Origin: Candidatus Aenigmatarchaeota archaeon
Lineage (GTDB): Archaea > Aenigmatarchaeota > Aenigmatarchaeia > QMZP01
DNA: 32,015 bases
Direction of reading: 5' to 3'
Assembly (NCBI GenBank): GCA_020343575.1
Contig: CP070801.1
Span: 998,273 to 1,030,287, forward strand
This document shows positions 10,061-30,850 of this stretch, piece after piece; positions within the stretch are counted from its first letter, which is position 1; each line of letters opens with the position of its first letter. The notes under the pieces are model-generated. The model was not told the origin of the DNA. It searched no databases and saw nothing but the letters and a program-made list of their open reading frames with translations. Made by a program: the position numbers and the translations under genes.

Positions 10061-11098
10061 CTAGATCTTGAGCTTTCTCCTTAGTTTAACATAAACACCA
10101 TAATCGATATTTTTCTTATTTTTTATGTAGTCCTCTGTCTTCTTTGCTCTATCTCTTCTCTCAAGAATCTTGTCTGTAACCATAAAGGAAAATGAGTCTG
10201 ATCCTGCTCCAGAACCGTATGATGTCATCAATATCCTGTCTCCTGGTTTTGCCGCATCCAAAATAGCGCACAACCCTACTGGGCTTGAGCCTGAGTATGG
10301 GTTGCCTATCCTCTTAACAACAAACCCTTGCTCAATTTGCTCATTTTTAAAACCGAGTATTTTTGACGCCGTCAAAGGAAACTTCCCGTTGGGCATATGA
10401 AAGACAATATGGTTGAAATCGCTTGGTTTCAGGGACAGTTTTTCCATCAGCAGCTTAGATGCAGATACAACGTGTTTGAAGTATGCAGGTTTTCCTGTGA
10501 ACCTTGCACCATGTGAAGGATAGTCTTCACCCTCCCTTCTCCAAAAATCACTCGTGTCTGTTGTGTAGGAGTGTGTCCCCTCTAAGGTAGCCAAAGGGTC
10601 TTTTCCTATAACAAACGCGCCAGCAGCAGCTGCCGCTGTATACTCGAGAGCGTCTCCAGGTCTTCCCTGTGAGGTATCTGCTCCTATCGCGAGTCCGTAT
10701 TCGATCTCCCTTGCTTTCACCAGTCCATAGCAGCACTGCATGGCAGCTGTCCCTGCCTTGCAAGCGAATTCAAAATCAGCAACCATGATATTCTCACCAA
10801 GTCCCAACGCTTCTGCAACAACCGTTCCACTGGGCTTGACTGCATAGGGGTGTGACTCAGAACCGATATATACAGCACCTATCTTCTTTGGGTCTATTCC
10901 TGCTCTCAGAAGAGCGTTTCTCCCTGCCTCAACTGAAATAGTTATCGTATCCTCATCCATCTCAGGAACAGCTTTCTCCTCAACTATCAGTCCCTTCTTA
11001 AAGCTTTCTGCATCTGTTCCCCAAACCCTTGCAATCTCGTCTACAGAGATTCTGAGTCTGGGTATGTAACAACCATATCCAACTATGCCTATATCCAT
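10061..11098 (-). CDS. Hydroxymethylglutaryl-CoA synthase (archaeal type).
   Basis: N-terminus [24 protein letters not shown] and the catalytic Cys context [13 protein letters not shown]; 345 aa. It is first in the HMGCS-thiolase-DUF35 operon. Confidence 0.9.
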
Positions 11099-11118
11099 AG
11101 ACTTTCCTCTCAGGGCTA

Positions 11119-11128
11119 TTTTTTAATT
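11119..11128 (-). promoter_or_regulatory. TATA-box-like A/T tract centred about 26 nt upstream of the HMG-CoA synthase ATG (11098).
   Basis: The minus strand reads AATTAAAAAA. Spacing is consistent with a leaderless operon transcript. Confidence 0.35.
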
Positions 11129-11190
11129 AGGACAGACATAGGTTTTTAAACCTTAAGGGGCAGATTCGACAATAAATCAATTCTTTAGAA

Positions 11191-11799
11191 TCAAGTGCCA
11201 GAAATCTTCAGAATCATTATTGCCTCGAATGCCTCTGCATACTTCACAGAGGTCGTAAGCCCTCTGAACTGGGCCAGACCCTTTATAGCGTCTATCTTCA
11301 TGTAGTCCTTTGAGTTCTGGGTAGCGTAGGTGTTGAGAGCTTCTGTTTTGTTTTTAATGAAGTTGGTTATGTCCACATAGTAGTTTGGCTGGAAGTTCAG
11401 GTAAAGGCTTGGTGACTCGTAGCAGAATATCTCAGGAATGAACCTTGCCGCTGCAAGGGTTGCATATGCAACAGTCCTGTGATCCTGATGGGTGTCCTTT
11501 GTGGAGTGGGTATAAATCCTCTGGGGCTTGAACTCCTCTACAATCTTTTCCAGTTTCTCTATAACATCGTGGGTTTGTGGGATGTTGGTATCAGGGTAAT
11601 TAAACAGATAAAGTTTTGCTCCAACGCGTTTTGCAGACTCTATCGCTTCCTTTTTCCTGACATCCTTGTCTCCGCTTTTCTCCCCATGAGATATGACTAT
11701 AAAAACTACCTTGTCCCCTTCTCTCCTGTGCTTCATTATGGTTCCTTAGCACCCGTATTCTATGTCGTCCGGGTGCGCACCAATTGCAATCACGTTCAT
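11191..11799 (-). pseudogene. PIG-L/LmbE-family N-acetylglucosaminyl deacetylase interrupted by a single in-frame TAA (11746-11748).
   Basis: Minus-strand reading from 11799: MNVIAIGAHPDDIEYGC-TAA-GTIMKHRREGDKVVFIVISHGE...THQDHRTV. The AHPDDxE metal/catalytic motif lies upstream of the stop and HxDH lies downstream, all in one frame. The ORF track only reports the 181-aa tail (11191-11736). Confidence 0.8.
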
Positions 11800-11804
11800 C
11801 TCTC

Positions 11805-12743
11805 TCACCTTTCTATTTTTTGTGAGCACTCTATCTCCTGCCAGACAAGCTTTTCCTTGTTTACTTTCTTGCCTCGCAGCAGGTCATATAGTACATTCAG
11901 GGTATTCACTCCTGCTTTTATGGTTATTGGCAGACCACCGGAAAACCTTGGGTTTGCCTCAACGAGCTTTGGGTTTCCGTTGGTATCAATCTTAAACTGT
12001 ATATTTATAGGACCTATAAACTTTAAAACCTCGCACATTTTCTCTATATTTTTGATTATTTTCTCATTCTTTTCCATCTTTCCCCTGACGCATACGCCCT
12101 TATAGACCTCCAGTCTCTTCCTGGGCATTATAACCAATGGCTTCCCATCAAGGTCGCACAAAACATCTGATGTGTATTCATATCCGGGCAGGTGCTCGCA
12201 AAAAACATTGTTCTTGTTTATTAGATCACTGGGGATATCATCTACGCTTTCGAAGGTCCTTGTTCCCCTACTTCCCCTTCCAATTCTCGGTTTCATGAAT
12301 ATCTTTCCCTTATCGAAAACTCTCAAGTCTTCTCTATTATCCGTCAGAACGTATCTTGGCGAAAAACCATGTTCCTTGAACCTTTCGTAAAAGAGATATT
12401 TATCATTACAAACATTAACGGTTTCGAATGGAGATATGATGATTTTCGTGTTGAATCTTTCCCTGCTTCTTGAAAACACCATAAGCTCCTCATCAACAGT
12501 TGGGATTATCAAATCTATTTTCTCCTTCGAGACAATATCATTTATTGCTTCTATGAATTTTTTCTCGTCTTTTGCATAGGGAACCTGGTAAAACTTCAAA
12601 CCAGTCTTACTGAGGGAGCCAAGCCTTTTCTTTGCATCAGGATCAGCATCGCATATCACAATTTCAAGATCGCTTGGGCTGTGATTAACAACATTCATTC
12701 CTGCAGGACCACCAACACCGGTTACCAATACCCTAATATCCAT
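11805..12743 (-). CDS. ATP-grasp family ligase (carbamoyl-phosphate-synthase L-chain-like fold), substrate unknown.
   Basis: N-terminal Rossmann-like VLVTGVGGPAG and the C-terminal ATP-grasp signature LVEANPRFSGG. The track starts at a GTG at 12746. The ATG at 12743 is preceded by AGGTGA and is the more likely start. Confidence 0.75.
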   Translation of the reverse strand: MDIRVLVTGVGGPAGMNVVNHSPSDLEIVICDADPDAKKRLGSLSKTGLKFYQVPYAKDEKKFIEAINDIVSKEKIDLIIPTVDEELMVFSRSRERFNTKIIISPFETVNVCNDKYLFYERFKEHGFSPRYVLTDNREDLRVFDKGKIFMKPRIGRGSRGTRTFESVDDIPSDLINKNNVFCEHLPGYEYTSDVLCDLDGKPLVIMPRKRLEVYKGVCVRGKMEKNEKIIKNIEKMCEVLKFIGPINIQFKIDTNGNPKLVEANPRFSGGLPITIKAGVNTLNVLYDLLRGKKVNKEKLVWQEIECSQKIER

Positions 12744-12746
12744 CAC

Positions 12747-13757
12747 CTAACCTAGCATCTGAATCAGTAGCAGACACCACAACGCCTGCAAGCCTATTAT
12801 CAAAAAGGTCACATCATTTTCATAGCAACGACCTTTTATTCTCTTTATTATTTTTATTGCAACATGGGTTAAAGACCATATCTCCTTATAAGGAGGGTCC
12901 AGATCTCCCTCTTTCCTGACCTTCCCAAAGCATTCGGGCTTGAAGGTTTTTTTATGTTTTATTATATATGGAATCTCCCTTGCTTTTATTATGCCTTCGA
13001 GTATGTACGGAAGCATTATTAGTATAAGTATTGTCTGGAAGTATCCCAGAACAGCAACAAACGCGAAGAGACAACCAAGGAAGTAGGTTAGTGCATCACC
13101 TGGGAAAATCCTGGACGGGTATCGGTTGAAGTAGAGAAAAGCCAGCATTGCAGCAACAGCTATGAGAACGATAGGGAAGAATGCTGTCCCGTATGTAAAC
13201 CAGAGCAGTGTCAGACTACATATTATTCCCAGACCGGTTTCAAGGCCGTTAAAGCCCCCAAGGAGGTTTACGGCGTTGGTTGCTGCTATAAATCCTATGG
13301 GAACCATAATCAGTGGGTAGAAAAACAAAGGCAACTCTATTACATAATCAAGTATGCTTATAGTTGTCCTGTTCAATAAAAGCGGTATCAGTGGAATGGC
13401 TCCTATAAAGGTGAGAATTGGTTTTTTCCACCTAGCGATTCCTTTCTTCCATCCTGTTATATCATCCCAAAAAGCAATACCAGTGACAATGGATAGGGAT
13501 GTTATTGCAAGCGCGATATAAACCAGTCTTTCAAACCTCTGCTGAAAATAATAAAAACCAAACAGTACAAGGAGACCAATGATAAATCCAAGGAAAACCA
13601 TAACGCCCCCTGCCTCTGCTACCTTTGGTTTGTCCTTCTTGTTCATGTCCTTTCCCATAAGTTTTCTCTTCTTGGCATGGGATATCCATCTAGGAGTAAA
13701 GAGAAGTGTAACCAAAAACGCCACGATTCCTGATATCAAGAGTTCATATATTGGCAT
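12747..13757 (-). CDS. Polyprenyl-phosphate HexNAc-1-phosphate transferase, glycosyltransferase family 4 (AglH/WecA/MraY-like).
   Basis: Polytopic membrane protein (about 10 hydrophobic segments) with the family signature NAVNLLGGFNGLETG and a DD-type loop (FWDDITG). Confidence 0.8.
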   Translation of the reverse strand: MPIYELLISGIVAFLVTLLFTPRWISHAKKRKLMGKDMNKKDKPKVAEAGGVMVFLGFIIGLLVLFGFYYFQQRFERLVYIALAITSLSIVTGIAFWDDITGWKKGIARWKKPILTFIGAIPLIPLLLNRTTISILDYVIELPLFFYPLIMVPIGFIAATNAVNLLGGFNGLETGLGIICSLTLLWFTYGTAFFPIVLIAVAAMLAFLYFNRYPSRIFPGDALTYFLGCLFAFVAVLGYFQTILILIMLPYILEGIIKAREIPYIIKHKKTFKPECFGKVRKEGDLDPPYKEIWSLTHVAIKIIKRIKGRCYENDVTFLIIGLQALWCLLLIQMLG

Positions 13758-13838
13758 AGATACACCAATTAAATTGATATAAAACTTAGTTAAATACAGT
13801 ATTTAAATGTTTATTTACTATAGAACAGTGGTAATACA

Positions 13839-14468
13839 TCATATCATCTTTCTCAGTCCCCATACAGAATGAGCATCAGAACCAATCACTGTTTTTGCAC
13901 CGAGTTTTCCAGCTAGTTTGAGGAAATCTGGAGGTGTTTCGTACTTTGGGCAGAGGTTGTTTTCTATGAGAACCTTGTTTCTTATGCAGAGGTTGATTAT
14001 GTCTTCCATCTCCTTCCTATTAAGTTCACAGTTTCTGAGCATGGTCGCTGGGTGACCCCATATGTCCACTTCAGGGTTTTTCAGCATCTTTTTCAGGGCG
14101 TTTATTTGCTCTTCTTTAACAGGGGGGAACCCGTGAAAGCTTATGATAACAACATCACAGAGTTTTAGAATGTCTTCAGAAACATCAATATCCCCGTTAA
14201 ACAAAATCTTTGCCTAGCACCCTGTGAGAAACTTCAGGTTGGGGAATTTCTTTCTGGCCTCCTCTATCTCCTTCACAAGATTGTTAAAATCGTAACTCAG
14301 TTCCCTTCTCACATGCTCTGTAAAGGCTATCAGCTGCAAACCGTTTTTCTCTGCCTGTTTGCACATCTCAAAAACCGAATTCTCACCCTCAATGTAATTC
14401 GTGTGGACATGCCAGTCCCCACTTTCCAGGAATTCCTTGAACTGCTCCCATCTCTTCATACTAACCAC
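13839..14468 (-). pseudogene. PHP-domain (polymerase/histidinol-phosphatase-like) metal-dependent phosphoesterase interrupted by a single in-frame TAG (14214-14216).
   Basis: One frame reads ...GDWHVHTNY...IAFTEHV...KFLTGC-TAG-AKILFNGDIDV...IISFHG...IGSDAHS. All PHP metal motifs are present except that the stop occupies the G-x-E glutamate position. The track splits it into 14214-14468 and 13839-14204 (TTG start). Confidence 0.8.
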
Positions 14469-15096
14469 TTATTTTCAGTATTTCATCCAGTTTATGGATT
14501 AAATAATCAGCCTCTGTTTCAACCTTTCCCCTACTCCTATTCATTCTTACAGTCTTTATTCCTAATCTTTTTGCTGTAATTAGTTGCGATTCAACATCCT
14601 CCACAAAAATCATTTCCCTCGGCTTTGTTTTCATTTCATTCATTAACTTTTTCCAAAACATCTGATCTTGCTTTATAGCTTTGAAATCATCTGCAGTAAA
14701 AACAAAATCAAAAGAGTTTTGCAGACCAGTAGCATGTAGCTTTATTTCCTGAAAAACTCTGTAACCATTACTCACAAAGCAAATTATTTTTTTCCTTGAT
14801 TTTAGTTCTCTTATCGTCTGTTTCACTTCACTGTAAGCCTTTATCAAATCTGAATATTTCTTATGCAACTCTTCAAGTTTCACGGTTCCGCCAAGCTTTA
14901 GTATTTTGGTATTCCAGTCGTAAAATTCTAGAGACAACGAATTCGGGTATCCTGATTTCATTTCTTTCTTAACCTCTTCTATACTCTTTCCTGTATTTTC
15001 TGATATGTTTTCATATGTCTCTCCATATATCTTTGGATCAGATTTACTGTTGTCTATTAACACACCATCCATATCAAAAATGTAAGCTTTTATCAT
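14461..15096 (-). CDS. HAD-superfamily hydrolase/phosphatase (subfamily IA-like).
   Basis: Motif I FDMDGVLID at residues 7-15, motif II VSNG, and a late acidic motif FVEDV. Confidence 0.8.
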   Translation of the reverse strand: MIKAYIFDMDGVLIDNSKSDPKIYGETYENISENTGKSIEEVKKEMKSGYPNSLSLEFYDWNTKILKLGGTVKLEELHKKYSDLIKAYSEVKQTIRELKSRKKIICFVSNGYRVFQEIKLHATGLQNSFDFVFTADDFKAIKQDQMFWKKLMNEMKTKPREMIFVEDVESQLITAKRLGIKTVRMNRSRGKVETEADYLIHKLDEILKISG

Positions 15097-29035: not shown

Positions 29036-30100
29036 TTAAATATCCCTTTCTATTAGAAAATCTGCAAAGGTCTTCAGCTTCTTCTTTGCATCAGACTCTG
29101 GTAGGATTGGGTCTATATCCTTCCATGCATCGGATACGATATCCCTTGCAACCCCACTTGCGTAATCAATGGAACCGTACTTATGTAAGATATCTATCGC
29201 TTCTTTTATGAGTTCTTTATCCCTGGTATGCATATCTAGAATCTGAAGGAGGCGTTTCTTGTCTCCCTCGCTCGCTTTTTTGAGGCTGTATATAACCATA
29301 AGGGTTCTCTTTCCTTCGGTTATATCATCTCCGTAGCCCTTTTTCTCTTGAAACTTTCCCCCACTTGCACTCAGTATGTCATCTTGTATCTGGAAAGCGA
29401 TCCCGATGGATTCGGCAAACCTTCCAATCTTTTCCTCCTGTTCTTCTGTCCCTCCAGAGAGGGCGACTGCGAGCTTTGCTGCCATTCTGGCAAGGGTTCC
29501 TGTCTTGCAGGAACACATCTGCAGGTATTGCTTTTCAGTGATGCCATCCGCTTTTCCCTTGTGCCACCAGATATCCAGTCCCTGTCCTATACTGAGATTG
29601 ATCATCTCCTTTACATATATCTCATAAACCCATAGCAGTGTCTTGGGGTCAATGGTGTCCCTGTTTTTGATCAGTATTGCAAGAGGCATGTAGAACATAA
29701 AACTGCTTGTATTTACTGCAACATCCACACCATATATCTTGTGTATGCATGGTTTCCCTCTCCTAAGATCTGAACCATCCTCCACATCATCAGCCATCAA
29801 GGTCCCATTGTGAATGATCTCGGGTATTATAGCGAAATCCTGAATCTTTTCAAGATCCGCGCCCATTGCCTTGGCTATCAAAAGGAACAGGGTGGGTCTC
29901 CATCTCTTTCCTCCCCTTTTAAGAATATCCCAGACAGGTTCTGTTATTGATTTGTTTATTGAGTCCAGGTCGTATTCGTGCCTTGTTTTTCCTAGGATTT
30001 CCTCAAGGTAGCCACTATCCATTTTCTCTGGAAAATGCTCCCTTATCTTGGAGTCTATGAATGGTTTTTTCTCCTCAAGAAATCTGATTATATCGTCCAT
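29036..30100 (-). CDS. Polyprenyl diphosphate synthase, probably geranylgeranyl diphosphate synthase.
   Basis: GGKRWRP, the first Asp-rich motif LMADDVEDGSDLRRGKP, and the second Asp-rich motif FQIQDDIL. Confidence 0.85.
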   Translation of the reverse strand: MDDIIRFLEEKKPFIDSKIREHFPEKMDSGYLEEILGKTRHEYDLDSINKSITEPVWDILKRGGKRWRPTLFLLIAKAMGADLEKIQDFAIIPEIIHNGTLMADDVEDGSDLRRGKPCIHKIYGVDVAVNTSSFMFYMPLAILIKNRDTIDPKTLLWVYEIYVKEMINLSIGQGLDIWWHKGKADGITEKQYLQMCSCKTGTLARMAAKLAVALSGGTEEQEEKIGRFAESIGIAFQIQDDILSASGGKFQEKKGYGDDITEGKRTLMVIYSLKKASEGDKKRLLQILDMHTRDKELIKEAIDILHKYGSIDYASGVARDIVSDAWKDIDPILPESDAKKKLKTFADFLIERDI

Positions 30101-30172: not shown

Positions 30173-30850
30173 ATGACCTTCAGTAGGATAGAGTCTGGGA
30201 TACCTGGGTTGGATAAGCTATTGGGTGGTGGTTTCATAGAGGATTCTGTGATTCTTGTAACCGGTGAAACAGGAACAGGAAAGACAATATTTTGTTCCCA
30301 GTTTCTGTGGCACGGTTTGAAGAAGGGTGAGACTTGCATATTCATAACACTGGAAGAAGATCCAGAGGAGATAAAAGAGGATATAAAGGTATTTAACTGG
30401 AATTTTGATAAATATGAGAAAAAGGGTCTGTTCAGAATAATATACCACGATCCTGCACAGGTCAATAACCTTGGCTCCCTAATCATAGACGAGATTAAAA
30501 ATCTAAAGGCAAAGAGACTTGTCATCGACTCAACTTCGCTTATCGGTTTAAGTATACAGGATATCTCGCAGATAAGAAAACTTCTTTTCAACACGATAAA
30601 CGTCATAAAGAAAAACAAATGCACTGCACTGATAACCGCAGAGATCCCTGAGGGGGCAAAGGGCCTTTCTAAATTCGGTGTTGAGGAATTCATAGTTGAC
30701 GGTGTCCTTGTTCTCAACTACCTTGAGTATGCAGCGGGTGGTTTGGACAGATCGCTGATTATAAGGAAGCTGAGAAGAACAGACCATGGGAAGGATATAT
30801 ACCCAATAGATATAACCAGCAAGGGAATTGTTGTCAAGCCCGTGGAATAG
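30173..30850 (+). CDS. Single-domain KaiC-like / RecA-superfamily ATPase.
   Basis: RIESGIPGLDKLLGGGFIEDSVILVTGETGTGKT (Walker A), Walker B RLVIDS, and the KaiC-like C-terminus RSLIIRKLRRTDH. Confidence 0.8.
   Translation: MTFSRIESGIPGLDKLLGGGFIEDSVILVTGETGTGKTIFCSQFLWHGLKKGETCIFITLEEDPEEIKEDIKVFNWNFDKYEKKGLFRIIYHDPAQVNNLGSLIIDEIKNLKAKRLVIDSTSLIGLSIQDISQIRKLLFNTINVIKKNKCTALITAEIPEGAKGLSKFGVEEFIVDGVLVLNYLEYAAGGLDRSLIIRKLRRTDHGKDIYPIDITSKGIVVKPVE

Follow-up and report, generated by a model that had tools for sequence, protein, structure and literature searches.

In-frame stop codons in a shared context in a glycan gene cluster of an Aenigmatarchaeota metagenome-assembled genome are most likely consensus errors

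Two genes in a 32,015 nucleotide (nt) stretch of archaeal DNA, one for a PIG-L/LmbE-type de-N-acetylase and the other for a PHP-domain phosphoesterase, are each interrupted by an in-frame stop codon, and both stops stand in the same sequence context, GGGTGCTARG. The stretch (hereafter the window) is taken from contig CP070801.1, positions 998,273–1,030,287, of the Candidatus Aenigmatarchaeota archaeon assembly GCA_020343575.1. Most likely, the stops are base-substitution errors in the deposited consensus: both alleles are private to this assembly, they form part of a genome-wide excess of in-frame stops, and their shared context occurs in the genome at background frequency. The assembly (G000) is a scaffolded, fragmented and uncurated metagenome-assembled genome (MAG) of an Aenigmarchaeota-like DPANN archaeon, a placement taken from the names under which its homologues are recorded. 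Its scaffolded nature is evident from runs of exactly 100 N, which divide the 1,051,577 bases presented as a single sequence into 167 contigs, and the window coincides exactly with one of these. The completeness of the MAG is 73% and its GC content 42.9%.

The two stops had been reported in an earlier note on this DNA and were confirmed, the TAA in the PIG-L gene and the TAG in the PHP gene, both on the minus strand (Table 1). The translations across them read ...AHPDDIEYGC*GTIMK and ...LKFLTGC*AKILF, respectively. With the stop read as X, the PF02585 profile match of the PIG-L protein covers residues 5–117 (101.8 bits vs a cut-off of 28.2) and the PF02811 match of the PHP protein residues 15–166 (47 bits vs 26.4), and both matches span the stop. 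A search of 40 related genomes found an internal stop in none of the 19 matched PIG-L orthologues and in none of the 14 matched PHP orthologues. In all eight relatives aligned at the PHP position the codon is GAG or GAA (Glu), and GGN TGY stands before it. The statement in the earlier note that each stop hits a conserved residue is therefore accurate for PHP and applies only loosely to PIG-L, where the loci of nine relatives carry Tyr (4), Gly (3) or Ala (2), with TAC, GGC, GCG and similar codons. Tyr is found in both same-genus genomes (GGG TGT TAC GGA and GGA TGC TAC GGA), while genomes farther away vary among Tyr, Gly and Ala. The PIG-L change is T>A at codon position 3 (TAT to TAA) and the PHP change is G>T at codon position 1 (GAG to TAG).

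Near-identical populations were available in three public sequencing runs holding the stretch; the share of sampled words was 0.83 in X1, and 0.53 and 0.52 in X2 and X3, which belong to a second study. No RNA run was listed among the runs that hold it. Their Logan contigs were compared with the window over positions 11000–15000, where they are about 98–99.5% identical to it. All three read A at 11746 (plus strand), giving TAT (Tyr), and C at 14216 (plus strand), giving GAG (Glu). In X1, X2 and X3, the depth of the sense allele was 10.1/12.2, 9.31/9.31 and 60.7/60.7 at 11746, and 12.7/12.7, 8.67/8.67 and 55.8/55.8 at 14216. At least ten window positions, counted among 40 of the 270 differences, depart from all three runs. 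Those listed in Table 1 comprise five transitions (three synonymous, one Ile/Val and one intergenic), which look like ordinary strain divergence, and five transversions (two nonsense, two missense and one synonymous), which look unselected. Both missense transversions fall at conserved residues: K195M in PIG-L, where six of six relatives have K or R, and I77F in PHP, five codons upstream of the stop, where eight of eight have Ile. Viewed as possible pseudogenes, the two genes combine stops that are private to the assembly with private missense changes at conserved residues.

A genome-wide census of in-frame stops was made by comparison with a same-genus sister MAG (G001), of which 722 kb of about 800 kb were taken. 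G001 open reading frames (ORFs) were searched on G000 by tblastn, and the reverse. A stop was counted if each flank had 15 or more aligned codons, an identity of 55% or higher and 45% or more of its nucleotide differences at third positions, and if none of the other five frames had better codon usage than the frame of the stop. The last filter was added because the share of third-position differences is insufficient by itself, one antisense frame sharing its third positions with the sense frame; early tblastn lists were swamped by antisense and out-of-frame ORFs with third-position differences of the types TGG>TGA and TAY>TAR. With the same filters on both sides, 22 in-frame stops were found in 163,772 codons of G000 vs none in 158,810 codons of G001. 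The PIG-L and PHP stops are two of the 22 and no other census stop lies in the window. The two genes had been described as the only interrupted ones, which holds for the 32 kb of the window; in the genome at least 20 further stops occur on other contigs. The figure of 22 is a lower bound, as the strict filter drops likely real stops of G000 at 74322, 141506, 250289, 964906 and 1038360, while it may keep doubtful ones at 328832, 597823 and 862188, which are without a Pfam match. A possible third window stop, at 30220, was rejected: it is located upstream of the ATG of a 354-amino-acid ORF (29036–30100), and a gene in another frame covers the region. A codon-usage scan for same-frame ORF pairs was unusable as a census, its 110 candidates being mostly ordinary gene junctions. 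A scan for frame changes returned six in G000 and three in G001, all but one of them in the first 35–55 residues, which in stop-to-stop ORFs are upstream sequence; at most one internal frameshift is left in G000.

The stops cut the Pfam domains of many proteins, among them the family-B DNA polymerase (PolB), the PheRS beta chain, GlmS, the anaerobic ribonucleotide reductase (NrdD), a UbiA-type prenyltransferase, an M50 protease (two stops, one inside the HExxH motif) and a DHH/RecJ-like protein, as well as a HerA-like ATPase, NAC, a metallo-beta-lactamase-fold protein, a GT2 glycosyltransferase and an 8-oxoguanine glycosylase. The assembly-specific excess thus includes presumably essential genes. 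For three of the further stops, proteins 95–97% identical have a sense codon at the site. PolB representatives are all at most 91% identical, and closer cluster members were used for the comparison; a relative with 97.4% identity carries Lys at this position, and the PolB call of G000 itself is a fragment of 320 amino acids. The two M50 stops correspond to Gly and Glu in proteins of 94.8% identity, the G000 call being a fragment of 151 amino acids. Radical private replacements are found near these stops (P327H in PolB and P110H in M50). The private load of PolB in G000 is six missense changes and one stop, compared with four and six missense changes in other strains. The residues of G001 replaced by the 22 stops are Glu (8), Gly (5), Lys (3), Ser (2) and Tyr, Trp, Cys, Leu and Thr (one each). 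Glu and Gly, which imply G>T at codon position 1, account for 13 of the 22, vs 24.7% expected under a uniform model with the codon usage of the genome. Eight of the 22 stops are TGA.

Differences private to G000 tend to cluster within about 1–40 nt of each other. Positions 12731 and 12732 are adjacent in the ATP-grasp gene, the PHP stop and I77F are 15 nt apart (14216/14231), and in PolB (L077) stop 321 is accompanied by P327H and L335F. A pattern of this kind would be compatible with local errors in the consensus.

The context shared by the two window stops loses its surprise because GGGTGC is inherited and the genome contains dozens of stops. To judge from the aligned relatives, GGG TGC ahead of both stops is an inherited, conserved Gly-Cys pair and was not created with them, since it is conserved in seven of nine PIG-L loci and in eight of eight PHP loci; TAR, for its part, is the form of any ochre or amber stop. 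Before mutation, the two sites had in common GGGTGC plus one A. GGGTGCTAR occurs exactly twice in the window, vs 0.20 copies expected from shuffles, and one of 100 shuffles reached two. The earlier note had named a genome-wide count as a check, holding that the motif at background frequency, with no other interrupted genes, would speak against a special context. When the count was made the motif was indeed at background, with six copies vs about 3.4–4.2 expected, while for interrupted genes the opposite was found, and the coincidence dissolves further because so many of them exist. Of the six, only the two in the window lie in the reading frame of a long ORF, and none coincides with a true gene end. 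GGGTGC itself is present in 186 copies on both strands, and the triplets that follow look unremarkable: TAA three times (Markov expectation 2.1–2.5) and TAG three times (1.3–1.7). In ORFs of at least 200 codons there are 14 in-frame GGGTGC pairs, two of which are followed by a stop. A random pair of nonsense-capable sites has the same upstream hexamer with a probability of 5.7e-4, but some pair sharing its hexamer was obtained in 12% of trials for 22 stops and in 36% for 40, the latter number being an extrapolation of the census to the whole MAG. GGGTGC precedes none of the other 20 census stops, and the 22 contexts show no evident motif in common. The shared GGGTGCTARG is, then, a conserved Gly-Cys pair plus coincidence, with no mechanism behind it, and, as a pair with the same hexamer should arise fairly often among dozens of stops, an identical 8-nt context is less unexpected than had been thought.

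The features of the cluster are collected in Table 1. The PIG-L and PHP genes belong to one minus-strand glycan cluster together with HAD, glycosyltransferase and ATP-grasp genes, and PIG-L is followed in cluster order by a ketoacyl-synthase-like gene and then a thiolase gene. In a further run (X4), a relative diverged by about 4.6% has 18 nt at 13757–13776, between the PHP and glycosyltransferase genes, replaced by 67 other letters.

Table 1. Features of the glycan gene cluster and positions private to the assembly (window coordinates).
Feature	Position (nt)	Strand	Remarks
PIG-L/LmbE-type de-N-acetylase ORF	11191..11799	-	202 codons, interrupted at codon 18; PF02585, E 5e-29
In-frame TAA, PIG-L codon 18	11746..11748	-	TAT (Tyr) in near-identical contigs, TAC (Tyr) in same-genus genomes
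Motif copy 1, GGGTGCTAAG	11745..11754	-	GGG TGC is the Gly-Cys of AHPDDxExGC, in 7/9 relatives' loci
ATP-grasp enzyme gene, intact	11805..12746	-	PF15632 and PF02655; between the two interrupted genes
Glycosyltransferase family 4 gene (sugar-phosphate transferase type), intact	12747..13757	-	PF00953, E 1e-24
PHP-domain phosphoesterase ORF	13839..14459	-	206 codons, interrupted at codon 82; PF02811, E 4.7e-12
In-frame TAG, PHP codon 82	14214..14216	-	Glu codon in near-identical contigs and relatives
Motif copy 2, GGGTGCTAGG	14213..14222	-	GGG TGC is the Gly-Cys before the conserved Glu, in 8/8 relatives
HAD-family hydrolase gene, intact	14461..15096	-	PF13419; upstream of PHP gene
Private positions	11216, 11746, 11800, 11889, 12498, 12731, 12732, 12768, 14216, 14231		Comparison with runs X1–X3

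On the reading favoured here, the deposited consensus would carry a thin layer of single-base substitutions, at roughly 0.1%, that is rich in transversions, especially G:C>T:A. The layer would be absent from near-identical populations and would show no sign of purifying selection. Falling in GAG, GAA, GGA, AAA, TAY and similar codons, such substitutions would produce in-frame stops, and the at least 22 such stops include TAA in place of TAT in PIG-L and TAG in place of GAG in PHP. We infer that the errors arose where unique coverage was low, the templates were damaged or the assembly was locally wrong. A living genome probably does not carry these lesions, since a viable cell is hard to square with cuts in PolB, PheRS-beta, GlmS, NrdD and others. 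Among the explanations suggested earlier was a context-specific sequencing or polishing artefact; an artefact is indeed best supported, but not a context-specific one, given the 20 other stops that lack the motif and the count of 22 vs 0.

Two kinds of documented error resemble the present case in part. Local assembly errors of MAGs are described by Chen et al. 2020 (PMC7111523) as regions without read support, often at repeats. Like them, the consensus here is unsupported by near-identical populations, has broken genes and is private to one assembly; unlike the errors described in that account, the lesions are isolated single-base substitutions and are rich in transversions. Oxidative G>T artefacts (8-oxoguanine) arising in library preparation are documented by Costello et al. 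2013 (PMC3616734), and the excess of G>T / C>A, with 13 of 22 stops replacing Glu or Gly codons, is similar to the pattern described there. Unlike such artefacts, A:T>T:A changes are also present here, and oxidative artefacts normally have a low allele frequency and should reach the consensus only at very low unique coverage. We infer a possible link between the stops of G000 and oxidative damage.

Several points weigh against consensus error. The alleles were compared with Logan contigs, which derive from different samples or perhaps from that of the MAG itself, and with relatives, and that the stops are errors is deduced from these. Classic oxidative artefacts are of low frequency and should rarely win the consensus, and among the five private transversions of the 4 kb compared, three are A:T>T:A, not G:C>T:A. 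The private synonymous transitions indicate that the window strain is truly distinct from X1–X3, and because of this the absence of the stops from those runs is no proof that they are false; Logan contigs, moreover, lose minor variants. The census depends on 722 kb of one sister MAG and on heuristic coding filters. A 12–36% chance of a shared hexamer is comfortable rather than overwhelming, and two hits among 14 in-frame GGGTGC pairs would be very unlikely had the hexamer been named beforehand. Finally, the 8-oxoguanine glycosylase gene of G000 is itself interrupted, which, if real, would account for the excess of G>T in biological terms.

The alternative that retains most weight, though we consider it unlikely, is that the stops are real and recent nonsense mutations of the assembled strain, arising under relaxed selection or from a G:C>T:A mutator phenotype. 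In that case the glycan cluster would be in decay, or its loss would be favoured by selection, for instance as an escape from a virus that uses the surface glycan. The distinctness of the window strain is in keeping with this, as are the two hits in one glycan gene cluster, the G>T-skewed spectrum, the cut in the Ogg-HhH domain, and a load of private PolB missense changes in G000 that is similar to that of other strains. The stops also resemble the nonsense pseudogenes of reduced or host-associated genomes in being in-frame stops in conserved ORFs, with two hits in one functional cluster. Unlike in such pseudogenes, presumably essential and single-copy genes are hit (PheRS-beta, PolB, GlmS, NrdD and the UbiA-type prenyltransferase), one gene (M50) is hit twice, and there is at most one internal frameshift, while natural gene decay usually includes indels. 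The sister genome has no such stops, and neither window stop is present in the three near-identical runs.

A stronger form of the same idea is that the lineage has lost its 8-oxoguanine glycosylase and is a natural G:C>T:A mutator, whose nonsense alleles would number dozens and affect some core genes. This seems very improbable. If true, leaky termination or dependence on a host could keep the cells alive, and the glycan genes would be casualties. The gene in question (Ogg-HhH fused to DUF123; G000:1038626-1039669, L095, minus strand) is cut by a TAA at G000:1039063, where the sister genome has TTA (Leu). Its occurrence alongside stops dominated by G>T is taken as coincidence.

A process specific to the sequence GGGTGC, whether the motif provokes errors of the sequencer or polisher or directs a mutational enzyme, with changes just downstream, is highly improbable and already largely refuted. 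It would explain why both interrupted genes of the window have GGGTGCTARG, and why a stop follows two of only 14 in-frame pairs. The two changes, however, differ in substitution (G>T, T>A) and in offset from GGGTGC (motif +7 and +9), the other 20 stops are without the motif, TAR follows GGGTGC at background frequency among its 186 copies, and the hexamer is an inherited Gly-Cys in both families. The sequence-directed mutational process proposed earlier is not borne out.

Programmed or tolerated read-through, in which UAA or UAG after Gly-Cys is decoded as an amino acid, perhaps by a suppressor tRNA(UUA), is scarcely credible: although a well-formed tRNA of this kind is present in the MAG and both ORFs are open and conserved past the stop, the stops are conserved in no orthologue and in none of the near-identical populations, the replaced residues differ (Tyr, Glu), a UUA anticodon could not decode the eight TGA codons among the 22 stops, and TAA, TAG and TGA all end long ORFs of G000 (169, 73 and 89, respectively). 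The tRNA was found by ARAGORN at G000:693829-693903 and scores 62.9 bits against the Rfam tRNA family, with the anticodon loop CUUUAAA; it was not found in 25 relatives. In-frame TAG and TAA inside conserved ORFs, together with a tRNA(UUA) in the bin, recall suppressor-tRNA recoding such as the pyrrolysine systems. Unlike in those systems, the stops are unconserved and include all three stop codons, the tRNA is on a phage-like contig, and no Pyl machinery was found: in this 73% complete MAG, the best PylS score was 23.5 bits vs a cut-off of 178, and no tRNA with the anticodon CUA was seen.

The contig with this ochre-suppressor type tRNA (L035:1311-1384, plus strand) is 4.4 kb in length (G000:692519-696897) and has a GC content of 42.8%, equal to that of the bin. 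Its ORFs match PHROGs, it carries a second tRNA with an insert of roughly 62 nt, and its DnaB-like helicase is closest to helicases of crAss-like Bacteroides phages and Flavobacterium phages, with 27–30% identity. The contig probably derives from a bacterial phage and was placed in the wrong bin. Recoded crAss-like phages reassign stop codons by means of suppressor tRNAs, and the phage behind the contig may do so as well.

If, as favoured here, the stops are errors of the consensus, they bear mainly on how this genome is used. G000 is the representative of its species in the genome collection searched, and its gene calls are truncated by at least 22 in-frame stops (about 40 by extrapolation), as the PolB and M50 fragments illustrate. 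Pseudogene counts or inferences of metabolic loss drawn from it would be wrong, and the presence in the bin of a phage-like contig with a suppressor-type tRNA could mislead analyses of the genetic code. As biology, the paired stops of the PIG-L and PHP genes most likely do not matter.

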